Of a stretch of DNA of 64,000 nucleotides, positions 18,104 through 64,000 are shown one piece after another. The number at the start of each line of letters is the position of its first letter. The first letter of the stretch is position 1. A program made the translations under genes and the position numbers. The stretch is from Candidatus Woesearchaeota archaeon (GTDB lineage: Archaea; Nanobdellota; Nanobdellia; Pacearchaeales; UBA284), in assembly GCA_964354405.1 (NCBI GenBank), contig CAYGZP010000001.1, positions 84,879 to 148,878 of the forward strand, in the 5' to 3' direction. The notes under the pieces were generated by a model. That model had not been told where the DNA came from. It did not search any database and saw nothing but the letters and a program-made list of their open reading frames with translations.

Positions 18104-18174
18104 GGGCCCGTAGTATAACGGCATTATTCGCCCTTGGCTTGGGTGAGATTCGGGTTCAATTCCCGACGGGTCCA
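18104..18174 (+). tRNA. tRNA-Ala (anticodon GGC)
   Basis: Same acceptor stem and G3:U70 as the first tRNA-Ala; anticodon loop TTGGCTT; T stem tcggg/cccga with TTCAATT loop; position 37 is a pyrimidine, so the anticodon register is less certain. Confidence 0.6.
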
Positions 18175-18316
18175 CTTCCAAATAACTTCTCAGAAATTTC
18201 TCAAACAAAAACCGAAAAACAAACTATATTGTCGAAAAGTTGCATAAAAGTAAAGAAAAGATTATAAAGTGATTATTCTTAACAAATCTCTGTAGGGGGA
18301 TTTAAAGCAACTTACA

Positions 18317-55248: not shown

Positions 55249-56028
55249 ATGCAAAATTCTAACAACTCCAACAGTGCAAAACCTTTAGCAGCAATTTATA
55301 TCCGAGTTTCAACTCAGGATCAAGCTCAGCATGGTTTCTCTTTAGATGCCCAGCAAGACACACTCCAAAATTATGCTAAAGTAATGGGCTATGACATCTT
55401 CAAAATTTACCGAGATGAAGGCAAGTCTGCTAAAGATATGAATAGGCCAGAGATGCAGCAGATGCTGAAAGATGCAGAAGCCAAGAAATTTTCAGCAATT
55501 TTCATTTACAAGTTAGATAGGTTTAGTAGAAGCATAAAAGACCTTATCCTGACTATTGACCAGCTTAAGACTTGGGGTATAGACTTTATCTCGCTCCAGG
55601 ACAAGATTGAAACAACCTCTGCTTCCGGAAAGCTTATGTTTCACATTATCTCGGCGTTCGCAGAGTTTGAAAGGAACATCATAGGCGATAGAACAACATT
55701 TGGAATGGCAAGGAAAGCAAAAGAAGGGGGTTTCATAACAAAAGCGCCTAAAGGATACAAATTAGTGAATAAACGATTGATAAAAGACACAGAACAAGAA
55801 AAGGAAATTAAAGAAATATTCAACAGTTTCCTGAATTCCGACATTTCATTGACACAACTGGCTAAAAAATACAATATGACGACTTCAGGCATCAAGAAGC
55901 TCCTGCAGAACACGACTTACTTGGGCAAAGTTAAGTTCGCCAATGTCGAGAGCCAAGGCGAGCACGAGCCCATAATCTTAGAAGAATTGTTCAACAAAGT
56001 CCAGGAAAAATTGAATAATATAAAATGA
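55249..56028 (+). CDS. serine recombinase (resolvase/invertase family)
   Basis: Catalytic-Ser region AAIYIRVSTQDQ, conserved Arg/Asp positions (YKLDRFSR, GDRT), C-terminal HTH; AGAGG-type SD. Confidence 0.8.
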   Translation: MQNSNNSNSAKPLAAIYIRVSTQDQAQHGFSLDAQQDTLQNYAKVMGYDIFKIYRDEGKSAKDMNRPEMQQMLKDAEAKKFSAIFIYKLDRFSRSIKDLILTIDQLKTWGIDFISLQDKIETTSASGKLMFHIISAFAEFERNIIGDRTTFGMARKAKEGGFITKAPKGYKLVNKRLIKDTEQEKEIKEIFNSFLNSDISLTQLAKKYNMTTSGIKKLLQNTTYLGKVKFANVESQGEHEPIILEELFNKVQEKLNNIK

Positions 56029-56588
56029 AAATTCTGCCAAAAACAACAAGGGAAGCAATGGAAATCATTTATAATACTCTTAATCAGGGAGATTCAAGAT
56101 ATAATGCGCCTGAAGATGAGCGCATTCTCGCTAATTTTATTATAAATGAAGCTATTTCTTTAGAAGAAAAGAAAATCCCGTTTATAAAAGAACCAGAAAA
56201 GAATAGCAAAATATCAGTTGTTCAAGAGACAGAGAAATATATAGCAAAAGAACTACTAAAACTTGAAGATTTTAAGGACAATGAAATATTTTTTGAAAGG
56301 TCATTTTTAGGTAGTAGGGCAGATGTTTTAGCAGAAGCCAACAACAAAATTATAGCAGTAGAATGTTGTTCATGCAGAATAAACAAAATAATAGATTATC
56401 TCTTAGAAGCAGATGAAGTTTGGGTGTTTACGCGGGGGAAACCTCCTTGGGAAACAGTCAACTATGTTGAAGATATGCAGTGGTTTATATTCAAAAGAGG
56501 CCCCAAATGGGACGAGACCTTTAAAGAACACGAAAAACAAGTCCAAGAAGAGCTGAAGAAGATTAAGAATCCGTTGGATGAGCTATAA
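56025..56588 (+). CDS. hypothetical protein co-transcribed with the recombinase
   Basis: Overlaps the recombinase stop by 4 nt; possible D...E-x-K-like pattern (RADVLAE...AVEC) but not convincing. Confidence 0.3.
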   Translation: MKILPKTTREAMEIIYNTLNQGDSRYNAPEDERILANFIINEAISLEEKKIPFIKEPEKNSKISVVQETEKYIAKELLKLEDFKDNEIFFERSFLGSRADVLAEANNKIIAVECCSCRINKIIDYLLEADEVWVFTRGKPPWETVNYVEDMQWFIFKRGPKWDETFKEHEKQVQEELKKIKNPLDEL

Positions 56589-56600
56589 AATGAAAAAGAA
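56553..56600. repeat. direct repeat copy 1 (gene-junction sequence ..ccg(t/c)t(g/t)gatgagctataaaatgaaaaag..)
   Basis: About 35 bp, ~90% identical to 57233..57270; core gatgagctataaaatgaaaaa identical. Confidence 0.6.
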
Positions 56601-57216
56601 AACAAGAAAAATACAGATAAAAACACTGATTTTTGATTATGGGGGGGTTCTTGCTGAAACTAACTATCATTTATTCAAGAAAATCATGATGAAAAAACAT
56701 GGTTTTTCTATCTTTTTATATTCAGATTATCCTAAAAAAATTCACAATAAGTTTAAGGGATTTTCAATCGGGAAACATTCTTATAGAGAAGTTTTGAAAG
56801 AGTTAAGCGGAAGAAAATATATTTCTGCTATAGTTAAAGATTATAAGAAATATCTTAACAAATGTCGAAAACCTAACAAAAGCTTGCTGAAACATCTTAG
56901 AAAATTAAAGAAAAAATATCTCTTGATTTATCTTTCCAATATCAGTGACTTGCATTTGGAAGCCCATCGTGAAAGCCATTTCTTTAAACATTTTAAATAT
57001 GGCCATGGTTCTTGCGAGCTCGGATTAAAAAAACCAGACAAAAGGATCTTTCTGCATGTAATTAAAAAATATCATCTAAAACCCAAAGAGACTGTTTTCA
57101 TTGACGATAGAAAAGAGAATGTCATAGCAGCAAGAAAAGTCAGAATGAAAGCAATCCAGTTCAAGAACAACCCTCAGCTTTTCAAAGACCTAAGAAAATT
57201 AGGGGTTAAGATTTAA
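56578..57216 (+). CDS. HAD-superfamily hydrolase
   Basis: Motif I-like LIFDYGGVL, motif II S/T, motif IV FIDDRKENV. Confidence 0.55.
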   Translation: MSYKMKKKTRKIQIKTLIFDYGGVLAETNYHLFKKIMMKKHGFSIFLYSDYPKKIHNKFKGFSIGKHSYREVLKELSGRKYISAIVKDYKKYLNKCRKPNKSLLKHLRKLKKKYLLIYLSNISDLHLEAHRESHFFKHFKYGHGSCELGLKKPDKRIFLHVIKKYHLKPKETVFIDDRKENVIAARKVRMKAIQFKNNPQLFKDLRKLGVKI

Positions 57217-57232
57217 GTTAAATTAGAAGAAA

Positions 57233-57270
57233 GTGAAAAACCCGCTTGATGAGCTATAAAATGAAAAAAG
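57233..57270. repeat. direct repeat copy 2 (includes a relic ..KNPLDEL-stop coding tail)
   Basis: aaaaacccgcttgatgagctataa translates to KNPLDEL-stop, duplicating the C-terminus of 56025..56588. Confidence 0.6.
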
Positions 57271-57878
57271 AAAAAATATTACTAATTGCATTATTTGTAT
57301 TGGTTTTATTGATGGTAGTAACCATTATAATAGTCGGATGTAAAACTCCTGAAGAAAAAACAAACGAAACTATAGAAGAACCACCACCTGAAATTATAGA
57401 AATAAATGAAAGCAAATTAGAATGGCTAATTTATCAAAAAATTAATGAAGAAAGAATAAAAGAAGGCATTGACATAGTAAATTACAGTAATAATTTCTCA
57501 ATTTTAGCTAAGGAACATAGTCAAGATATGTTAAAAAATGATTATGTTTCTGTAATAAATTTAGAAAACAAAAGTGCTATAGAAAGAGCTTTAGATAAGG
57601 GTTGGAATACTTATATTTTATGTTATGGCTGGAGAATATATATTTCTGAATTTGTAGATAATATTTCTATTAGATACGATGAAATATGTGGGTCTACAGA
57701 AGATGAAGAAGAAATTTCAGATTGTGCCATTAAAAAATGGATATATAACCCTGATATAAATGAAATAATTCTTGGAAAAGCCCATTTCGAAGGTCAAAAG
57801 TGCATACATCCCCGTGAATTAGGGGTAGGGGTATCTTGTGATAATTATAGTTGTCTTATTGCTGTAAATGGTCTTTAA
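57246..57878 (+). CDS. secreted CAP/SCP (PR-1-like) domain lipoprotein
   Basis: Signal peptide with IVGC lipobox-like Cys; CAP blocks (INEERIKEGI...ILAKEHSQDM). Confidence 0.45.
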   Translation: MMSYKMKKEKILLIALFVLVLLMVVTIIIVGCKTPEEKTNETIEEPPPEIIEINESKLEWLIYQKINEERIKEGIDIVNYSNNFSILAKEHSQDMLKNDYVSVINLENKSAIERALDKGWNTYILCYGWRIYISEFVDNISIRYDEICGSTEDEEEISDCAIKKWIYNPDINEIILGKAHFEGQKCIHPRELGVGVSCDNYSCLIAVNGL

Positions 57879-57909
57879 AAGTGAAAATCCCTAGAAATCC
57901 GTTTGGATT

Positions 57910-58365
57910 CTAATTGACAAACGTGTTTTTTACTCGTTTAGATTTAACAAAATAAATAGTCCAAACGATTGCGGCACCTAGATAAATTAATAAGGGGCTA
58001 TAATCCTCCAAAAGAGAGCTAACAATTAAGTTGTTAACAAAAATAGCCCATAAATAAATAATAGCAAAAACAGGAGCTTTTTTTGATTTTGTAAATATAA
58101 AATAAAGTGTAAATCCAATTAAAACTAGAAGCCCGAGATCTAAAAATAATGCCCACTCAATAGAATACTCTCCAATTAGAGAGAGAGCATCAAGAATATC
58201 TATAATTATAACAATGATACTATAAAACATCCCTATAATTGGAATAATTAACCACCCCCCTATCCCAGACACTTTCTCTTCTTTCTTTGCAGTTTTCTGT
58301 TGCAATCTCCTCTTTTTCGTTTTTTCTTCACTATAAAACCAATTAGATATTTTTTTCCAACACAT
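57910..58365 (-). CDS. polytopic membrane protein (hypothetical)
   Basis: Basic N-terminus plus four TM helices. Confidence 0.3.
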   Translation of the reverse strand: MCWKKISNWFYSEEKTKKRRLQQKTAKKEEKVSGIGGWLIIPIIGMFYSIIVIIIDILDALSLIGEYSIEWALFLDLGLLVLIGFTLYFIFTKSKKAPVFAIIYLWAIFVNNLIVSSLLEDYSPLLIYLGAAIVWTIYFVKSKRVKNTFVN

Positions 58366-58482
58366 AGATAAATCAAGTTTTTTTAATATATAAAATTAAC
58401 GAAAACAAAAGAAGAAAGAGTTATAAAAGCAAAGATTTTTAATTCCAAGAAAAGTAGAATTTATATTAAAAAGAGGTAAGAA

Positions 58483-58599
58483 ATGGCTAAAAAGAGAAAG
58501 TCAGGAAGTGCTATAATTATATATTTAGAAATTCTAAGGTGGCTTTTATTTGCCTTGGGTATTCTCTTTTTTATATGGTTAATCAAAAATCTAATATGA
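58483..58599 (+). CDS. 38-aa single-TM peptide, translationally coupled to the next ORF
   Basis: aagaggtaag SD 4 nt upstream; stop overlaps the downstream ATG as ATGA. Confidence 0.25.
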   Translation: MAKKRKSGSAIIIYLEILRWLLFALGILFFIWLIKNLI

Positions 58600-58847
58600 T
58601 AAGCATTAAATGGATTATAAGTAAAATAATTGAAATTATTTATTTAGTAATAATAGTATATGTTGCTTATCAAGTTTTAAAGGCAATCTTTGGTGGGACA
58701 TGGGCTACTGAAGATATTATTATAGCTGGGATGGGAATAATTTTGGCGGGGATGTTTGCTATAGTTGGATTTCTAATAAACCAAGCCCAGAGTATTGGTA
58801 AAATAAAAGGGACATTAGAAGAGCATGTGAGAAATCATAAAAAATAA
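58596..58847 (+). CDS. small two-TM membrane protein (hypothetical)
   Basis: In frame with track ORF 58539..58847; start moved to the ATG coupled to the upstream peptide. Confidence 0.3.
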   Translation: MISIKWIISKIIEIIYLVIIVYVAYQVLKAIFGGTWATEDIIIAGMGIILAGMFAIVGFLINQAQSIGKIKGTLEEHVRNHKK

Positions 58848-58908
58848 TTATTTCTTTTTCAATAATCTCAATATCCCAGAATTATTTAAGGGTTTCTGCT
58901 CAAAACAA

Positions 58909-59082
58909 CTATTCCTTCCTTTTTGTCTTTAAACCGCAAATTGGACATCTGTTTCTTGACTTAAGCCACCAATGATAAGGTAAGTAAAAAACACCAAAAC
59001 CTATCAAAAACCAAGCCCAACTAAATTTCTTTTTTGTTCCTTCTACATACTTCTTACATTCTGGACAATATCTTTTTCCCAT
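58909..59082 (-). CDS. 57-aa zinc-ribbon membrane protein (not in ORF track)
   Basis: MGKRYCPECKKY...TM helix...CPICGLK: two CPxC pairs flanking one TM helix. Confidence 0.3.
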   Translation of the reverse strand: MGKRYCPECKKYVEGTKKKFSWAWFLIGFGVFYLPYHWWLKSRNRCPICGLKTKRKE

Positions 59083-59233
59083 GTTTTTATAATGTTCAAG
59101 AAATATTTAATCCTTTCTATGACAAACGAGCATTGTCAATCGTTCTTACAAACGATTAAAAGAAATATTTAAGAGCGAGCCCATCAGGGCGAGCGTGGTT
59201 TCTGTAGGGTGAGATTTCTACTTTAATCCAAAA

Positions 59234-59587
59234 TTATTCTTGAAAATATTTTAATATTCTTGCTTTATCTTCATTTTCTTGTTGTGATTTACAATAGATT
59301 TCTATAAATATTATTTTGTCATTTGGTGGGTCATAGGCAAAAATAACCCTTATCCCGCTCATAGAACCCCTATTTAGTGATTTACAACGAAATTTTCTTG
59401 CTTTATATACTGGAATTTTAACTTTTTCTCCTAGTCCCGAAATTCTTACAACACCACTAAGGTTTTCTTTATCTGTTTCTAATGCTTGTTTAAATATTAA
59501 AAAATCTTTGTCAAATCCCCTATGCTTTTTTACTAATTTATCAAGATCTTTAGAGAATTCTTTTACTTTTTCTTCATCGAATATCAT
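59234..59587 (-). CDS. RelE/ParE-superfamily-like toxin
   Basis: About 117 aa; conserved layout G.G..VKIPVYKARKF......GIRVIFAYDP..DKIIFIEIY typical of the RelE/ParE/Gp49 fold; overlaps the upstream Panacea gene by 14 nt. Confidence 0.5.
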   Translation of the reverse strand: MIFDEEKVKEFSKDLDKLVKKHRGFDKDFLIFKQALETDKENLSGVVRISGLGEKVKIPVYKARKFRCKSLNRGSMSGIRVIFAYDPPNDKIIFIEIYCKSQQENEDKARILKYFQE

Positions 59588-60083
59588 TTTCTTCAGTTAC
59601 TGAATGTATAGCATCTCTATAGAACACAAGTTCATAGTCTATTATTTCTTTGTTTTTAGTTGCTTTCCAAGGTATATCAGTATGGGAATATCCAGTTATT
59701 TGGTGTGCAGTCATCCCAGAAAACTTATTTATTGTTTTATCAATAATTTGTATGTCCGCACCGCTGAGCAAAACAATCTCTGGTTCTTGAATAGATAAAA
59801 ATTTATTTTGGGGGTATCCCTTATATTTTGTTTTAATTTCTTTTATTTTACTTTTCTTTTTTAATTTTTTGAGCACTTTATTAATGTGGCATGGCGCCGG
59901 GCCATATAGGAGTTTTCTATAACTCTCGCCAGTTATAGAGATTTCATATTTTTCATAATAATCAAAATCAGAAAAGTATAATAACTTGTATAGTACTGTC
60001 TTTCCAACATTCTCTAAATTAGTACATTTATGGATCACATAATGTACCATTTCTTCAAATTTTTTTCCATTAAATTTAATCAT
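59574..60083 (-). CDS. Panacea-domain (DUF4065, SocA/PanA-like) putative antitoxin
   Basis: KLLYFSDFDYY...TGESY..LLYGPAP matches the DUF4065 core. Confidence 0.55.
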   Translation of the reverse strand: MIKFNGKKFEEMVHYVIHKCTNLENVGKTVLYKLLYFSDFDYYEKYEISITGESYRKLLYGPAPCHINKVLKKLKKKSKIKEIKTKYKGYPQNKFLSIQEPEIVLLSGADIQIIDKTINKFSGMTAHQITGYSHTDIPWKATKNKEIIDYELVFYRDAIHSVTEENDIR

Positions 60084-60155
60084 GTTACTTATAAGACCTC
60101 GGACTTTTTAACCCTTTCCTTTCTCATTAACCTTCAATCAATTTTTTTGACTTCT

Positions 60156-60995
60156 TTACTTTTTCAAGTTTAAAGAATTAAGATAATTTTCAACGAGTTC
60201 TTCAACCATTCTCGCCTTTATTACCATTCCTAAATCTATACTTTCTGACTTTTTTATTACTGGTTGCAGTTTTGCAGGAATCTCTTTAAATTCTATTTTT
60301 CCTTCATCATTTTTAAAAAACCATTTTGAGATCACTCCACAAAAATAAATTCTCTCACCTCCAAGAATAGTATTTCCACTTCTTGTTTTAAATCCAGATT
60401 TGTCATAAATAAAAACTGGACTTCCGCTTGATCCTGGAAATACAGAAGCATCGATTAAAAAGATAGGATTTCCTCCATAATCTATATTTATGGATGTTGC
60501 GGTTATTCCCGTTCTAATTATAGGTAATAAGTTCTTTGAATCATAAAGTCCAATAGGATACCCTATAAATAAAATATTTTCTAAGGCGTCAAATTCTTCT
60601 AGATCTTTTTGATTTGGTATAAAGTTTGCTGGAATAGATCTTACAAATAGCTTTACTCCATTATCTTTAAATGTATTAATTATAGTGGAAAGATTGGTTA
60701 AAGTTAAGTCTACATTTTCGTCAGGATGATTGAACCAATCTGTTTCGTTTAAAGTGCAATAAAGCTTCTTTCCAAGAAAAGGAGAATTTTTTGGAGGAAT
60801 TTCAGAATCAGACTCTGTGAAGAAGAAATTGATTTGTTTAGCACATTTTATAACATGCTTGTTTGTAATTAAAAAAGTCATCATTTTTCCATTATTTAAT
60901 TCTGCCTGTAAAATAAAACCAGTACCAACACCAAGATTTGTTTCTATCCTAGTTGTAGAAAAAAGTAATTGTTCAACAAGGGTTTCAACTTTCAT
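60156..60995 (-). CDS. cytoplasmic trypsin-like (chymotrypsin-fold, S1/Trypsin_2) serine peptidase
   Basis: His block GFILQ..TNKHVI, Asp in NVDLTL, Ser block GSSGSPVF; no signal peptide. Confidence 0.6.
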   Translation of the reverse strand: MKVETLVEQLLFSTTRIETNLGVGTGFILQAELNNGKMMTFLITNKHVIKCAKQINFFFTESDSEIPPKNSPFLGKKLYCTLNETDWFNHPDENVDLTLTNLSTIINTFKDNGVKLFVRSIPANFIPNQKDLEEFDALENILFIGYPIGLYDSKNLLPIIRTGITATSINIDYGGNPIFLIDASVFPGSSGSPVFIYDKSGFKTRSGNTILGGERIYFCGVISKWFFKNDEGKIEFKEIPAKLQPVIKKSESIDLGMVIKARMVEELVENYLNSLNLKK

Positions 60996-61831
60996 TTCAA
61001 ATTCTCCTCAACCTTATCTTGCTTTAGAAATTCACCTTTAATAGCTTTATCTACAACACCTTTAACTTCAGCAGAAAAATCTGTGCTTATCATCCAATTA
61101 AGATAAGAAGGATCGTTTTTAAATACGAATTCAAGTGTTTTTCCTTTATATTTATTTCCAAAGTTTATAATTGCTTTTCCTTCGAGCCATGCCAATTTTC
61201 CATTTTCGTCAATCCATTTAGGGTCTTTTTTTGGATTACAAAATCCATGCAAACCTAAAATATGCTTGGGTAATTCCTCATGCTGTTCCAATTGAGATTT
61301 AAAAACATCCACTATAGCACGAACATCAACCTCTGACCTATGGGCCCCTTTTAATTCTTTATTACAATATTTTTTATAAGCTGAACCCAAATCTCTTGGT
61401 TCTAATTTATGATAAATTGTTAAGACATCCACAATCAATTTTTCTTTATGCGAGTAAGTTATTCCTACTCTTTGAAATTCTGCTTCGAGAAGGGGCAAAT
61501 CAAACCTATTTATCGCAAATCCTCCCAGGTCACAATTTTCTATGAATTCGAGTAATTTTGGGGCAAATTCTTTAAAATAGGGCTTTCCTAAGACAGCTGC
61601 ATCCATTATACCATGAATTTTTATTACCTCAGGAGGAATTGGAATGCCTGGATTAATTAAAGAACTTAAAAATTCTTCATGTCCATCTGGATTAATTTTA
61701 ATAATGCTTATTTCTATTATACGATCTTGTTGTGGGTTTATTCCTGTTGATTCTATATCAATAAATGCAAGAGGTCTTGTTAATTGTAAATTCTTCATCT
61801 TCTCCCCATCCTTATCTCTCCAAGTCCTCAC
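60992..61831 (-). CDS. DnaQ-like DEDDh 3'-5' exonuclease with DUF3820-like C-terminal domain
   Basis: Exo I FIDIESTG, Exo II FDLPLL, Exo III HRSEVD; C-terminal FGNKYKGKTLEFV...DPSYLNWM resembles the KGKTL/DPxYLxW domain often fused to phage exonucleases; overlaps the protease gene by 4 nt. Confidence 0.65.
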   Translation of the reverse strand: MRTWRDKDGEKMKNLQLTRPLAFIDIESTGINPQQDRIIEISIIKINPDGHEEFLSSLINPGIPIPPEVIKIHGIMDAAVLGKPYFKEFAPKLLEFIENCDLGGFAINRFDLPLLEAEFQRVGITYSHKEKLIVDVLTIYHKLEPRDLGSAYKKYCNKELKGAHRSEVDVRAIVDVFKSQLEQHEELPKHILGLHGFCNPKKDPKWIDENGKLAWLEGKAIINFGNKYKGKTLEFVFKNDPSYLNWMISTDFSAEVKGVVDKAIKGEFLKQDKVEENLK

Positions 61832-61852
61832 AACTTTATTAGTTTTTCGGTT

Positions 61853-62173
61853 TTAGTTATCTACAATATGGAGTCCTTTTTTTATAGGCTCAACCCACCA
61901 ATATACCCATGCCCTTTCATGTTTCTTAGATTTGATTTTTCCCAACATCTCTAATTTTTTTAAACTCCGCCCTATTCTACTGTACATTGTTGGTAATCCC
62001 TTTCTCCACGAAGAAAAAGATTTATTTTCAACATCTTCAGGTTTAACTTTAAAAGTTTCTATCATAATCCCTATAATTGTATAAGCATTTTTAGGATCGT
62101 TTTTTAAAGTTTCTTCTACCTTCGTAAAAACATCGTCTTTTTCGAGTTCTTTTATAGGTATTTTTATTTTCAT
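61853..62173 (-). CDS. small winged-helix-like protein, first gene of the minus-strand operon
   Basis: Helix-rich middle (AYTIIGIMIETFKV) and a basic wing (KKHERAWVYWW). Confidence 0.3.
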   Translation of the reverse strand: MKIKIPIKELEKDDVFTKVEETLKNDPKNAYTIIGIMIETFKVKPEDVENKSFSSWRKGLPTMYSRIGRSLKKLEMLGKIKSKKHERAWVYWWVEPIKKGLHIVDN

Positions 62174-62349
62174 TTTAACCTCCTATACTCTATTGTATTT
62201 AATGTTTTATAAGTAATTTATGTATCTTAGGGTATTTAAATCTTTGCTTTTTTATAAGTAATATTTTTAAACTCTTCTATTATGTCTTATATCACCGAAA
62301 GGTTTAAAACTGGAAGTTTACTAGAAAAAGAAAGGCAGGGTGAAAAAAG

Positions 62350-63261
62350 ATGGCGCATCATAAAATCATAATTGGGGATTCTAGAAATATGAAAAAATGG
62401 ATTCCAGATGAATCTGTTCATTTAATTGTTACTTCGCCACCATATGCACACATCAAAGATTATGGAGTCAAAGGACAAATTGGATTTGGCAGTTCTTTTC
62501 AAGAATATATTAATGATTTAACAAAAGTATGGAAAGAATGTTATAGAGTTTTGAAGCCTAATTGTAGACTTATAATTAATATAGGAGATGTTTATAATAC
62601 TACACCAGTTATTGGAAGACATAAGGCCCTCCCTATACACGCACATTTTATTATTGAATGCGAGAAACTTGGTTTTGATTATATGGGGCATATCACTTGG
62701 CAAAAAGTTGGAACCGTTAGGCCGAGTGGGGGGGCAAGTGTTATGGGTTCTTTTCCACATCCTAGAAATGGCATTGTAGAATATGATTATGAGTATATTT
62801 TAATTTTTAAAAAACTTGGAAAAGGAAATGGATTAGAACTTTCAGAGAATATAGATGAATTATCAAAAAAGAGAAAAATTTCTAAATATGAATGGTTAAA
62901 AAAAGTAAAAGAGAAATCTGCGATGGATATTAAAGAATGGCGAGAATTATTTGCTGGCCATTGGAGATTTCCAGGAGTGCGACAAGTTGAACATATCGCC
63001 ATGTTTCCAGAAGAATTGCCCAGAAGACTAATCAAAATGTTTTCTTTTTCAGCAGTTCCAGAGCTCGGTTTCAAAGGAGATGTTGTTTTAGATCCATTTT
63101 TAGGAAGCGGCACTACAACAAAAGTCGCAAAAGAATTAAATAGAAACAGCATAGGTATAGAATTAAATTCTAAATTCTTAAAAACAATTAAAGACAAGGT
63201 TGGGATAACACAGAAAACCTTTGATAAAGCTGAGCATACTTTTGAAATAATTAAAGATTAA
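62350..63261 (+). CDS. beta-class amino-DNA methyltransferase (N4-cytosine or N6-adenine; SPPY type)
   Basis: Motif IV IVTSPPY near the N-terminus and AdoMet motif I LDPFLGSGTT near the C-terminus, i.e. beta permutation. Confidence 0.8.
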   Translation: MAHHKIIIGDSRNMKKWIPDESVHLIVTSPPYAHIKDYGVKGQIGFGSSFQEYINDLTKVWKECYRVLKPNCRLIINIGDVYNTTPVIGRHKALPIHAHFIIECEKLGFDYMGHITWQKVGTVRPSGGASVMGSFPHPRNGIVEYDYEYILIFKKLGKGNGLELSENIDELSKKRKISKYEWLKKVKEKSAMDIKEWRELFAGHWRFPGVRQVEHIAMFPEELPRRLIKMFSFSAVPELGFKGDVVLDPFLGSGTTTKVAKELNRNSIGIELNSKFLKTIKDKVGITQKTFDKAEHTFEIIKD

Positions 63262-63821
63262 ATTTTATCTTTTCTATTTTGCAAATATTTTATAAAATCA
63301 ATTTTTTTAATATCACAATATATCCTTAAAAAATAAGCTACTAAACCTTTATTTCCATATTCTGGAACCAAATAAAATTTACCATTATCATTTTTGATAT
63401 ATAACATAATCGTTTTTTCAAAATCAACATCTTTAAAGGCAATTCTAGCACCAGTAACCAATTTTACTTGAATCCATATTTCTTTTGTGTCCACTTTTCC
63501 AAGAATATCTATCCCCCCAACATCTTCTGCTTCAGTAGACCACCTCCAATTTATTTCAGGAACATTTCTTTCTAAAAATTCCATCGTCTTTTTTTCAGCT
63601 TGCCATCCATCAAAAGTTGACCATAGCATCATATATTCCACCCATTTGATAACTTCTTCATTTTTAATTGCCCTAATTTTTTCAAAATTATCTATAATAT
63701 ATCTATCAACCGCGCGATCTCTCAATCTTTCTTTAGTAACTTCTGTTATGAATGGATAGCCTTCAATTTTCTTTCGTTCTTTTAGAGGAATAAATTTATA
63801 ATTTGATTTTATCTTAGGCAA
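63258..63821 (-). CDS. putative type II restriction endonuclease (PD-(D/E)xK-like), convergent partner of the methyltransferase
   Basis: Candidate catalytic core EDVGGIDILGKVDTKEIWIQVK; 4-nt tail-to-tail overlap with the MTase; otherwise unrecognised. Confidence 0.35.
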   Translation of the reverse strand: MPKIKSNYKFIPLKERKKIEGYPFITEVTKERLRDRAVDRYIIDNFEKIRAIKNEEVIKWVEYMMLWSTFDGWQAEKKTMEFLERNVPEINWRWSTEAEDVGGIDILGKVDTKEIWIQVKLVTGARIAFKDVDFEKTIMLYIKNDNGKFYLVPEYGNKGLVAYFLRIYCDIKKIDFIKYLQNRKDKI

Positions 63822-64000
63822 TTTTATTTTTTTATTATCTTTTTCTTCAAGAGCATCCGCATAAAGCTTAATAACAAAATAATAATCTTTTATAATTTTT
63901 ATATAAAGTTCTTTTTCATTTTCTAATTCGTATATCTTTTTAAGATAATTCTCAATTGCTTCTTTTCTACTCCCTTTTGAACATTCTTTATCATAATCCC

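Follow-up and report, generated by a model that had tools for sequence, protein, structure and literature searches.

Five co-directional genes of a DPANN archaeon are likely a mosaic of independent modules, including a predicted PanA-PanT toxin-antitoxin pair and a PDC-S45 protease

The analysed stretch of Candidatus Woesearchaeota DNA (64,000 nucleotides, hereafter the window) contains a cluster of five open reading frames, all on the minus strand, at 59234-59587, 59574-60083, 60156-60995, 60992-61831 and 61853-62173. These coordinates are exactly those of a preliminary description of the locus, and the 14-nt overlap, the 4-nt overlap and the 72-nt gap given there are all correct. With one gene start revised, the features are as follows:

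61853..62173, minus strand: winged-helix (wHTH) protein, 106 aa (AF2 model and Foldseek fold match)
60992..61798, minus strand: DEDDh (DnaQ-like) 3'-5' exonuclease with an ExoX-like C-terminal domain, 268 aa (Pfam)
60156..60995, minus strand: cytoplasmic trypsin-fold serine protease, PDC-S45, 279 aa (PADLOC, Pfam)
60084..60155, minus strand: 72-nt intergenic gap between the protease gene and panA-panT
59574..60083, minus strand: PanA, Panacea (DUF4065) antitoxin, 169 aa (PF13274)
59234..59587, minus strand: PanT, RelE/HigB2-fold toxin, 117 aa (predicted structure)

The start codon of the exonuclease is almost certainly the ATG at 61798 (268 aa) and not the GTG at 61831. This ATG is the start position in all 26 of the 26 aligned exonuclease homologues, a Shine-Dalgarno (SD)-like GGGGAG lies just 5' of it, and independent gene calls on identical contigs likewise give 268 aa. 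The gap to the wHTH gene therefore measures 54 nt, not the 21 nt described earlier. The end of the exonuclease gene and the start of the protease gene share the 4 nt ATGA, and an SD-like GAGGAG precedes the protease start, making translational coupling of these two genes in the source genome possible. Another SD-like motif, GAGGT, is located 14 nt ahead of the panA ATG. A strong SD (TAGGAGGT) lies upstream of the wHTH gene, and a repeated ATTACTTATAAAA motif occurs in the divergent intergenic region beside it. Inspection of the 72-nt gap (60084-60155) revealed neither a convincing TATA box nor a convincing terminator. No recognisable terminator was seen between the five genes, and within the cluster there was no archaeal promoter that could be assigned. 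The sigma-70 and terminator scan stayed at background (20 found vs 17.5 expected) and used bacterial models, which are not applicable to archaea.

The cluster is part of an accessory segment of low GC content (0.30 vs 0.37), and low GC is common to all five genes (0.27-0.32). The adjacent type II restriction-modification (R-M) pair was confirmed by matches to N6_N4_Mtase (1.4e-45) and an MjaI-like REase (1e-7), and a serine recombinase is present at the edge of this segment, in agreement with the accessory, defence-island setting previously proposed. No att-like repeats flanking the segment were detected within the window by repeat search, and the one Rfam match in the window was a tRNA outside the cluster. 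Given their shared strand and low GC, the five genes may have been brought in together by a single element, which is a counterpoint to reading them as a mosaic.

As for the compactness of the cluster, 25 of the 48 same-strand neighbour pairs in the window overlap or lie at most 30 nt apart, and a 4-nt overlap is found in 6 of the 48. The spacing is not beyond chance; tight packing is the base rate in the window. Coding density, estimated from a crude gene model, is 90% for the window, and in such a genome the five genes may share transcripts merely for that reason.

The panA and panT genes overlap by 14 nt. PanA contains a complete Panacea domain (PF13274, 2.6e-19, 70.6 bits vs a cutoff of 25.7; residues 31-140, model 1-113 of 113), as called in the preliminary description, and sequence searches returned no close solved structure for it. 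The accompanying call of a RelE/ParE-like toxin holds at the level of fold, with no Pfam match above threshold. PanT matches Pfam RelE (PF06296) weakly (E=0.057, 14.1 bits vs a cutoff of 27); in its family (n=15), three members weakly match RelE and two ParE_toxin, none of them at the Pfam threshold, and the family profile matches the HigB-2 PDB sequence at E=0.002. The AF2 model of PanT (pLDDT 90.2) has a beta-alpha-alpha-beta4-alpha topology, and its top Foldseek PDB matches are HigB2, P. horikoshii RelE, YoeB, YafQ and HP0892 (probability 0.97-1.0, TM 0.5-0.7). Its conserved basic and aromatic residues include the invariant K62, R80 and Y98 and the nearly invariant K65 and K100. PanT is probably a ribosome-dependent mRNA endonuclease; on fold alone, its activity may instead be ParE-like, directed at gyrase.

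Homologues of PanT were found by word-index search in at least 14 clusters beyond that of the window, all of them metagenomic, and a scan of viral contigs found no relatives. In loci L171-L177 the gene immediately 5' of the toxin homologue encodes a Panacea protein, the two genes overlapping by 4 or 14 nt, and the Panacea-toxin pair of locus L030 overlaps by 8 nt. All examined toxin homologue loci had Panacea in this position (4-14 nt overlap), and none had the other three genes. From its domain, fold and conserved gene pairing, PanA-PanT is a predicted type II toxin-antitoxin (TA) pair and the only conserved unit of the cluster; the antitoxin/toxin logic suggested earlier for 59234-60083 is thus retained. 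PanA would bind and neutralise PanT, which, once freed, would cleave ribosome-bound mRNA, leading to growth arrest. Recurrence of the pair without the other three genes also agrees with the fallback proposal that the 72-nt gap sets a two-gene unit apart, and the gap at 60084..60155 is the most likely functional boundary between the protease and PanA-PanT.

Upstream of this gap, the protease matches PDC-S45 of PADLOC (PDLC05022) over its full length (3.4e-89, 296.7 bits; residues 1-272 on model 11-284 of 293). Judged from its sequence, it is a full-length member of this single-gene candidate defence family, and the earlier remark that the exonuclease-protease combination fits no named defence system does not hold for the protease. 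Its description as a cytoplasmic trypsin-like protease was confirmed by a match to Trypsin_2 (PF13365, 1.3e-6, 29.6 bits vs a cutoff of 27.6), by an H47/D96/S192 triad that is invariant in 31 sequences, with S192 placed within GSSGSP (GxSGxP motif), and by the absence of an N-terminal signal sequence. Sequence searches returned no close solved structure. The family is widespread (1861 hits). Its DPANN relatives of 57-59% identity (L082-85) are embedded in hsdR...hsdS...hsdM type I R-M operons and a Dehalococcoidia clade lies between hsdS and hsdR; altogether, embedding in type I R-M operons was seen in L003-5, L007, L020, L032 and L082-85. Relatives also recur in proviral contigs and are encoded in 95 IMG/VR stretches, the protease matches phrog_7688 at 3.3e-65, and a homologue annotated as hypothetical occupies a moron-like position at the genome end of Shigella phage SfII. 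A divergent clade (35-38% identity) resides in carboxysome/CbbQO loci, so not every member of the family is defence-linked. No conserved or recurrent partner accompanied the protease across 166 other loci, and all-against-all BLASTP of the genes adjacent to it in the closest DPANN loci gave no matches indicative of a shared small partner. PDC-S45 was nominated in PADLOC by guilt-by-embedding, the paper naming it terms it a hypothetical defence candidate, and we found no reports of its experimental validation in the literature. The protease would act as a single-gene effector of defence or abortive infection, latent until infection and then cleaving a host or viral protein.

The exonuclease matches RNase_T (PF00929, 3.3e-22, 80.2 bits vs a cutoff of 24) and ExoX-like_C (PF20600, 1.3e-8, 34.5 bits vs a cutoff of 26.5). 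It had been described as a DEDDh exonuclease with a DUF3820-like part; the exonuclease assignment stands, whereas DUF3820 itself gave no match and is replaced by ExoX-like_C. The DEDDh residues D14, E16, D100, H153 and D158 are invariant across 27 sequences, and the nearest solved structures are the DinG exonuclease domain, PolC and DnaQ. Other defence assignments were considered and rejected: i) PDC-S48, of which only the N-terminal exonuclease domain is matched (model 6-175 of 411; model class 411-512 aa), and ii) CBASS Cap18 or Cas2-DEDDh, for which the PADLOC DEDDh match reflects the generic domain alone. PADLOC found no CBASS or Cas matches in the six further proteins scanned from the cluster and the R-M pair. 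A 65%-identical homologue from Pacearchaeota (L090) is located between tsaD/kae1 and the ribosomal protein genes L7Ae/S28e/L24e, and no conserved neighbour was detected across 79 other exonuclease loci. Phage proteins annotated as DNA pol III epsilon also have the full-length architecture; relatives are encoded in 132 phage records, and the match to phrog_192 ("DNA polymerase exonuclease subunit") reaches 2.6e-44. The exonuclease is thus assigned to a generic solo DEDDh family, widespread in DPANN archaea and phages, and probably acts in DNA repair or replication.

The viral relatives of both proteins raise the question whether the exonuclease and protease are ordinary replication and maturation genes of an integrated archaeal virus. 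The PHROGs matches, the IMG/VR stretches and phage records and the serine recombinase at the segment edge are what such a provirus would lead one to expect. However, no capsid, portal or terminase gene was found in 56-64 kb (the far boundary of the segment lies past the window end), the protease shows neither conserved synteny to structural genes nor a recurring neighbour, and its SfII homologue sits in a moron-like position. A proviral origin is, in our estimate, highly unlikely.

The small wHTH protein had no Pfam match above threshold, and no curated family matched it. Its own family comprises 52 representatives (full-library phmmer search); weak matches among 38 members were to Penicillinase_R (10) and to the TBPIP/Hop2 winged helix (8). 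The winged-helix call of the preliminary description rests on structure: the top Foldseek PDB matches of the AF2 model (pLDDT 89.4) are predominantly winged-helix proteins (Hop2, LmrR/PadR, ArsR/SmtB, Fur) with a probability of about 1. The predicted fold suggests that the protein is probably a DNA-binding regulator of an unnamed family. Homologues of 51-59% identity sit before unrelated genes, encoding DUF2779, HATPase_c_3 and a 1014-aa PKD-like protein, and the protein accompanies neither the exonuclease nor the protease in other loci. As far as gene neighbourhoods indicate, the wHTH gene is independent of both.

Co-occurrence of the five genes was examined by tblastn and profile HMMs in loci from genomes, metagenomes and viruses (80 of each) and in targeted contexts, the HMMs serving to catch distant DEDDh neighbours beyond tblastn reach. 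With the HMMs, there were no matches to the exonuclease in 166 other protease loci and none to the protease in 79 other exonuclease loci. With tblastn, no relatives of the exonuclease, the toxin or the wHTH protein were found near the protease in the 80 genome and 80 viral loci. The closest protease homologue (L088, 76% identity) occurs without the exonuclease, and the closest exonuclease homologue (L089, 76% identity) without the protease. The exonuclease-protease pair had been put forward as an undescribed defence module, and the lack of co-occurrence in the loci searched speaks against this; from these neighbourhoods, no specific link between the two genes is apparent. A broader version of the idea, in which the wHTH protein, the exonuclease and the protease (or the latter two) form a lineage-specific defence module with PanAT as a separate unit, is very unlikely. 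It could draw on the 4-nt exonuclease/protease overlap with its SD-like motif, on the common strand and low GC, on the adjoining type II R-M pair and on the occurrence of DEDDh domains in defence contexts, as in the PADLOC DEDDh and N-terminal PDC-S48 matches. Against it, besides the absence of either gene from the loci of the other, the exonuclease family is solo in housekeeping and phage contexts, 4-nt overlaps of this kind are shared by several other pairs of the window, and the PDC-S48 match is confined to the segment given above.

The five-gene arrangement was repeated only on two contigs of the same organism (L086, L087), which are 100% identical, and no PADLOC multi-gene system model matched the four non-protease proteins. 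The single five-gene operon or system of the preliminary description is thus not supported: absence of the combination from other genomes had been named there as a finding that would refute it, and none of the other loci searched repeats the arrangement. In such an operon, the genes would be co-regulated in defence or abortive infection, with sensing or activation left to the nuclease and protease and execution to the TA pair; the protease might, for instance, degrade PanA on infection. The genes are indeed co-directional, tightly packed and free of recognisable terminators in between, and some PanAT clusters are reported to have conserved accessory third genes, proteases and nucleases among them (Kurata et al., PMC8832971); in the supplement of that study, nothing relevant to protease or exonuclease accessory genes was found. 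A Panacea relative near the protease was detected in two loci alone (L025 and L030) of the 80 genome and 80 viral loci, the TA modules lying 0.4-3 kb from the protease homologue, which hints at more than random co-localisation, though toxins and spacings differ. In L030, however, the protease and PanAT are 3 kb apart with unrelated genes in between, in L025 the toxin is of a different, MqsR-like type and the gene order is reversed, and in L171-L177 PanA-PanT lacks both protease and exonuclease. We regard a common five-gene operon as extremely unlikely.

We consider it likely that four modules of independent evolutionary origin make up the cluster, as a mosaic in a low-GC accessory DPANN segment, and that it is not one system. 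These modules would be i) the panA-panT pair, ii) the stand-alone protease, iii) the solo exonuclease and iv) the solo wHTH regulator. Recent, lineage-specific functional coupling would show no conservation, which is another counterpoint to the mosaic. In a speculative scenario of this kind, to which we assign very little probability, the PDC-S45 protease has newly become linked to the DEDDh exonuclease (by translational coupling at the ATGA overlap and possibly wHTH control), with PanAT as a linked addiction or abortive element, too recently for conservation. If this were true, a lineage-specific nuclease-protease anti-virus module in DPANN would follow. The five-gene claim would have meant that the poorly studied DPANN archaea have a multi-gene defence system not seen before, which the evidence contradicts. 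What the likely mosaic offers is an archaeal case of a Panacea antitoxin whose partner toxin represents a small RelE/HigB2-fold family not named before, and a further data point for PDC-S45 as an uncharacterised protease that moves on its own, as one gene, through R-M-rich accessory regions in archaea and bacteria. The protease is the sole part of the cluster worth experimental work.

Compared with known systems, the protease resembles PDC-S45 in its full-length match, intact triad, cytoplasmic location, lack of a conserved partner and relatives in type I R-M operons and proviruses. It differs in that the window copy is not inside an R-M operon, the type II R-M pair being 1.35 kb away, and directly follows an exonuclease gene. 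The exonuclease shares with DnaQ/ExoX-type DEDDh enzymes the invariant DEDDh motifs and the ExoX-like C-terminal motif, and is sized like solo repair exonucleases and the phage "pol III epsilon" proteins; unlike these, its host is archaeal (DPANN) and it has no polymerase or helicase partner. Panacea is reported to pair with many toxin folds including mRNA interferases, in archaea too (Kurata et al. 2022, PNAS; PMC8832971). As in these PanA-PanT systems, the pair of the window has a full Panacea domain and an antitoxin gene that is 5' of and overlaps a small toxin gene, whereas its toxin is a member of an unnamed RelE/HigB2-fold family of small size. Finally, PanT is similar to HigB2/RelE toxins (V. 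cholerae HigB2, PDB 5JA8/8A0X; P. horikoshii aRelE, PDB 1WMI) in predicted fold and topology and in conserved Lys, Arg and Tyr on the C-terminal beta-sheet, but shares just 9-19% sequence identity with them, and its antitoxin is Panacea, not HigA or RelB.

The final 8 kb of the window (56-64 kb) have a GC content of 0.299, compared with 0.373 in the remainder (1-55000), and each of the five genes of the minus-strand cluster falls between 0.27 and 0.32. The features of this region are as follows:

55249-56028, serine recombinase, CcrB/XisF-like (4.6e-47), at the GC transition
59234-59587, minus strand, toxin PanT (117 aa)
59574-60083, minus strand, Panacea antitoxin PanA
60156-60995, minus strand, trypsin-like protease
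60992-61798, minus strand, DEDDh exonuclease
61853-62173, minus strand, wHTH protein (106 aa)
62350-63821, type II MTase and MjaI-like REase pair, following the five-gene cluster

Given the low GC, the recombinase at the transition and the R-M pair, the accessory or defence-island setting proposed in the preliminary description is a fair one, and positions 56029-64000 probably belong to an integrated accessory element that extends past the window edge. A 51-nt direct repeat (80% identity, 56555-56605 and 57226-57276) duplicates a gene junction here; in both copies the end '...KNPLDEL-stop' overlaps the start 'MSYKMKK...', so that a HAD hydrolase (56578) and the ORF after it (57246) share their starting peptide, which suggests a cassette-like duplication or insertion. 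The REase gene is convergent with the MTase gene, with 4 nt shared at the end of the latter; the REase start is uncertain (63258-63821), with TTG 63821 giving 187 aa and ATG 63632 giving 124 aa, and the 187-aa form was absent from a collection of 15 billion proteins. Elsewhere in the window, a second tRNA-Ala (GGC) at 18104-18175 was called by ARAGORN and not by the Rfam tRNA model at its gathering threshold.

Our ORF list agrees exactly with the five minus-strand ORFs first described, including overlaps of 14 nt and 4 nt and a gap of 72 nt. For the exonuclease, however, the start had been placed at GTG 61831, where no SD-like motif was seen upstream. A GGGGAG motif lies just 5' of ATG 61798, all 26 aligned homologues begin at the matching position, and the gene called on each of two identical Logan contigs encodes the same 268-aa protein. 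The start is therefore almost certainly ATG 61798, which leaves 54 nt rather than 21 nt between this gene and the upstream one. Close packing says little in this window: a crude gene model puts coding density at 90%, with 25 of 48 same-strand neighbour pairs overlapping or lying at most 30 nt apart (exactly 4 nt of overlap in six of the 48).

Pfam, PADLOC, alignments and predicted structures together indicate that the domains were essentially labelled correctly, apart from the DUF3820 proposed for the exonuclease, for which the Pfam search gave no match. In Pfam, PanA matched Panacea (2.6e-19, model fully covered), the protease Trypsin_2 (1.3e-6), and the exonuclease RNase_T (3.3e-22) and ExoX-like_C (1.3e-8); the wHTH protein had no match, and the toxin matched RelE below threshold (E=0.057). 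Among PADLOC models, the protease matched the phage defence candidate PDC-S45 over its full length (3.4e-89, residues 1-272 against model positions 11-284 of 293), and is thus a member of a catalogued, uncharacterised candidate family. For the exonuclease, the matches were limited to generic DEDDh models and an N-terminal stretch of 170 positions in the candidate PDC-S48 (411 aa); the wHTH protein, PanA and the toxin matched none. The protease triad (H47, D96 and S192, the last within GSSGSP) and the DEDDh residues of the exonuclease are invariant in alignments, and no signal peptide was found in the protease alignment. The predicted toxin structure (pLDDT 90) matched HigB2, archaeal RelE, YoeB and YafQ in Foldseek with probability of about 1, and the toxin family profile matched the HigB-2 sequence (E=0.002). 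For the wHTH protein (pLDDT 89), the best Foldseek matches were predominantly winged-helix domains.

The only conserved association within the cluster is that of PanA and PanT. A word-index-limited search retrieved 14 clusters of toxin homologues besides the window's own, and all contexts recovered for them had a Panacea gene immediately upstream, overlapping by 4-14 nt, and no protease, exonuclease or wHTH gene. The pair is an additional member of the known PanA-PanT toxin-antitoxin systems.

As for the protease, we surveyed 80 loci from one-genome-per-species GTDB contigs, 80 from IMG/VR and six distinct contexts of the closest homologues. Neither tblastn nor profile HMMs detected relatives of the exonuclease, toxin or wHTH protein in them, and a recently assembled exonuclease-protease module, lacking positive comparative support, is very unlikely. 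By tblastn, Panacea modules occurred 0.4-3 kb from the protease in just two of about 170 loci, with another toxin type or with intervening genes, which fits co-localisation in islands rather than an operon. In one (L030:1538-6113, Methanophagaceae, ANME), the protease is 39% identical and a PanA 54% identical to that of the window lies about 3 kb downstream, overlapping a truncated 117-aa toxin homologue; the unrelated genes in between include an SNase-like 237-aa protein. In the other (L025:9986-12597, Thermotogota), a 113-aa protein, MqsR-like by eye, lies 410 nt downstream, followed by a 350-aa protein with an apparent N-terminal zinc ribbon and HTH and a C-terminal part 28% identical to the window's antitoxin; the arrangement, with the toxin gene first, would represent another type of PanAT.

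The exonuclease and the wHTH protein have still other contexts. In 80 metagenome exonuclease loci (43-66% identity), tblastn and profile HMMs found no protease, Panacea, toxin or wHTH gene, and no neighbour was conserved across them. The closest homologue (76%) is isolated, and a 65%-identical Pacearchaeota homologue is flanked by tsaD/kae1 and the L7Ae, S28e and L24e genes in 24 contigs. The full-length architecture also occurs in Flavobacterium and other phages, labelled "DNA polymerase III epsilon". A provirus replication or maturation block gained no positive support from the comparisons and is very unlikely. The exonuclease is probably a generic repair or replication enzyme. Downstream of wHTH homologues (51-59% identity) lies a DUF2779 gene, a small ORF and then an HATPase_c_3 gene, or the gene of a PKD-like protein of 1014 aa. 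DUF2779 is directly downstream in L178 (4001-5867), and a PDDEXK_1 gene is upstream in L179 (3322-4309) and L180 (24-1113), a possible hint that this family is loosely associated with PD-(D/E)XK-type nuclease genes. In the window, TTTTATAAGTAAT (minus strand ATTACTTATAAAA) occurs twice, 45 nt apart (62198-62224 and 62243-62269), within the 176 nt that separate the divergent wHTH and MTase genes; the copies could be archaeal TATA boxes of two divergent promoters or a wHTH operator. The wHTH protein probably acts as a local regulator, with the repeated ATTACTTATAAAA motifs as a possible target.

The complete five-gene arrangement was found elsewhere only in two short contigs from other sequencing runs, which carry no evolutionary information because they are 100% identical to the window. 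The single defence or abortive-infection operon first proposed gets no support from co-occurrence across the homologue loci of the protease, exonuclease, toxin or wHTH protein, and a full five-gene system, devoid of positive comparative support, appears extremely unlikely. We consider it very likely that the five genes are a mosaic of independent modules.

By their gene contexts, the PDC-S45-like proteases themselves group into separate clades, one embedded in R-M operons, one proviral and one linked to carboxysome/CbbQO genes. DPANN relatives (57-59% identity) are enclosed in type I R-M operons (hsdR-x-x-x-protease-hsdS-x-hsdM; hsdM-x-protease-hsdS), and a Dehalococcoidia clade lies between hsdS and hsdR. 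The closest homologue (76%) is preceded by unrelated small genes, and no homology was found among the genes next to the protease in these loci. In the phage database the sole relative, 31% identical across 65% of the query, is a hypothetical protein of Shigella phage SfII (KC736978.1:40459-40977), in a moron-like position at the extreme end of the 41.5-kb temperate genome. A further, divergent clade, 35-38% identical, is conserved among chemolithoautotrophic proteobacteria (Thiobacillus, Nitrobacter, Thiomonas, Thioalkalivibrio; L036-L076), in 23 of the 80 genome loci. Directly 5' of this protease, on the same strand, are cbbQ, cbbO (encoding a VWA protein of about 785 aa) and, in some loci, a gene for a BMC-domain protein; SulP, SbtA and P-II genes lie 3'. 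Two examples are:

L041:7635-10807, carboxysome locus with the protease
L038:6987-10810, carboxysome locus with the protease

These are carboxysome or CO2-concentrating loci rather than defence islands, and to our knowledge no role of a trypsin-like protease has been described at such sites.

Two results are the most useful, namely the negative one on the five-gene system and the context clades of PDC-S45-like proteases. In the window, the protease may be a latent defence or abortive-infection effector working alone. Its embedding in R-M operons elsewhere resembles the guilt-by-embedding by which PADLOC PDC candidates, mostly still unvalidated, were nominated (PMC12988326). PanA would bind and neutralise a RelE/HigB2-type ribosome-dependent mRNase, following the standard type II logic of the Panacea paradigm (PMC8832971).
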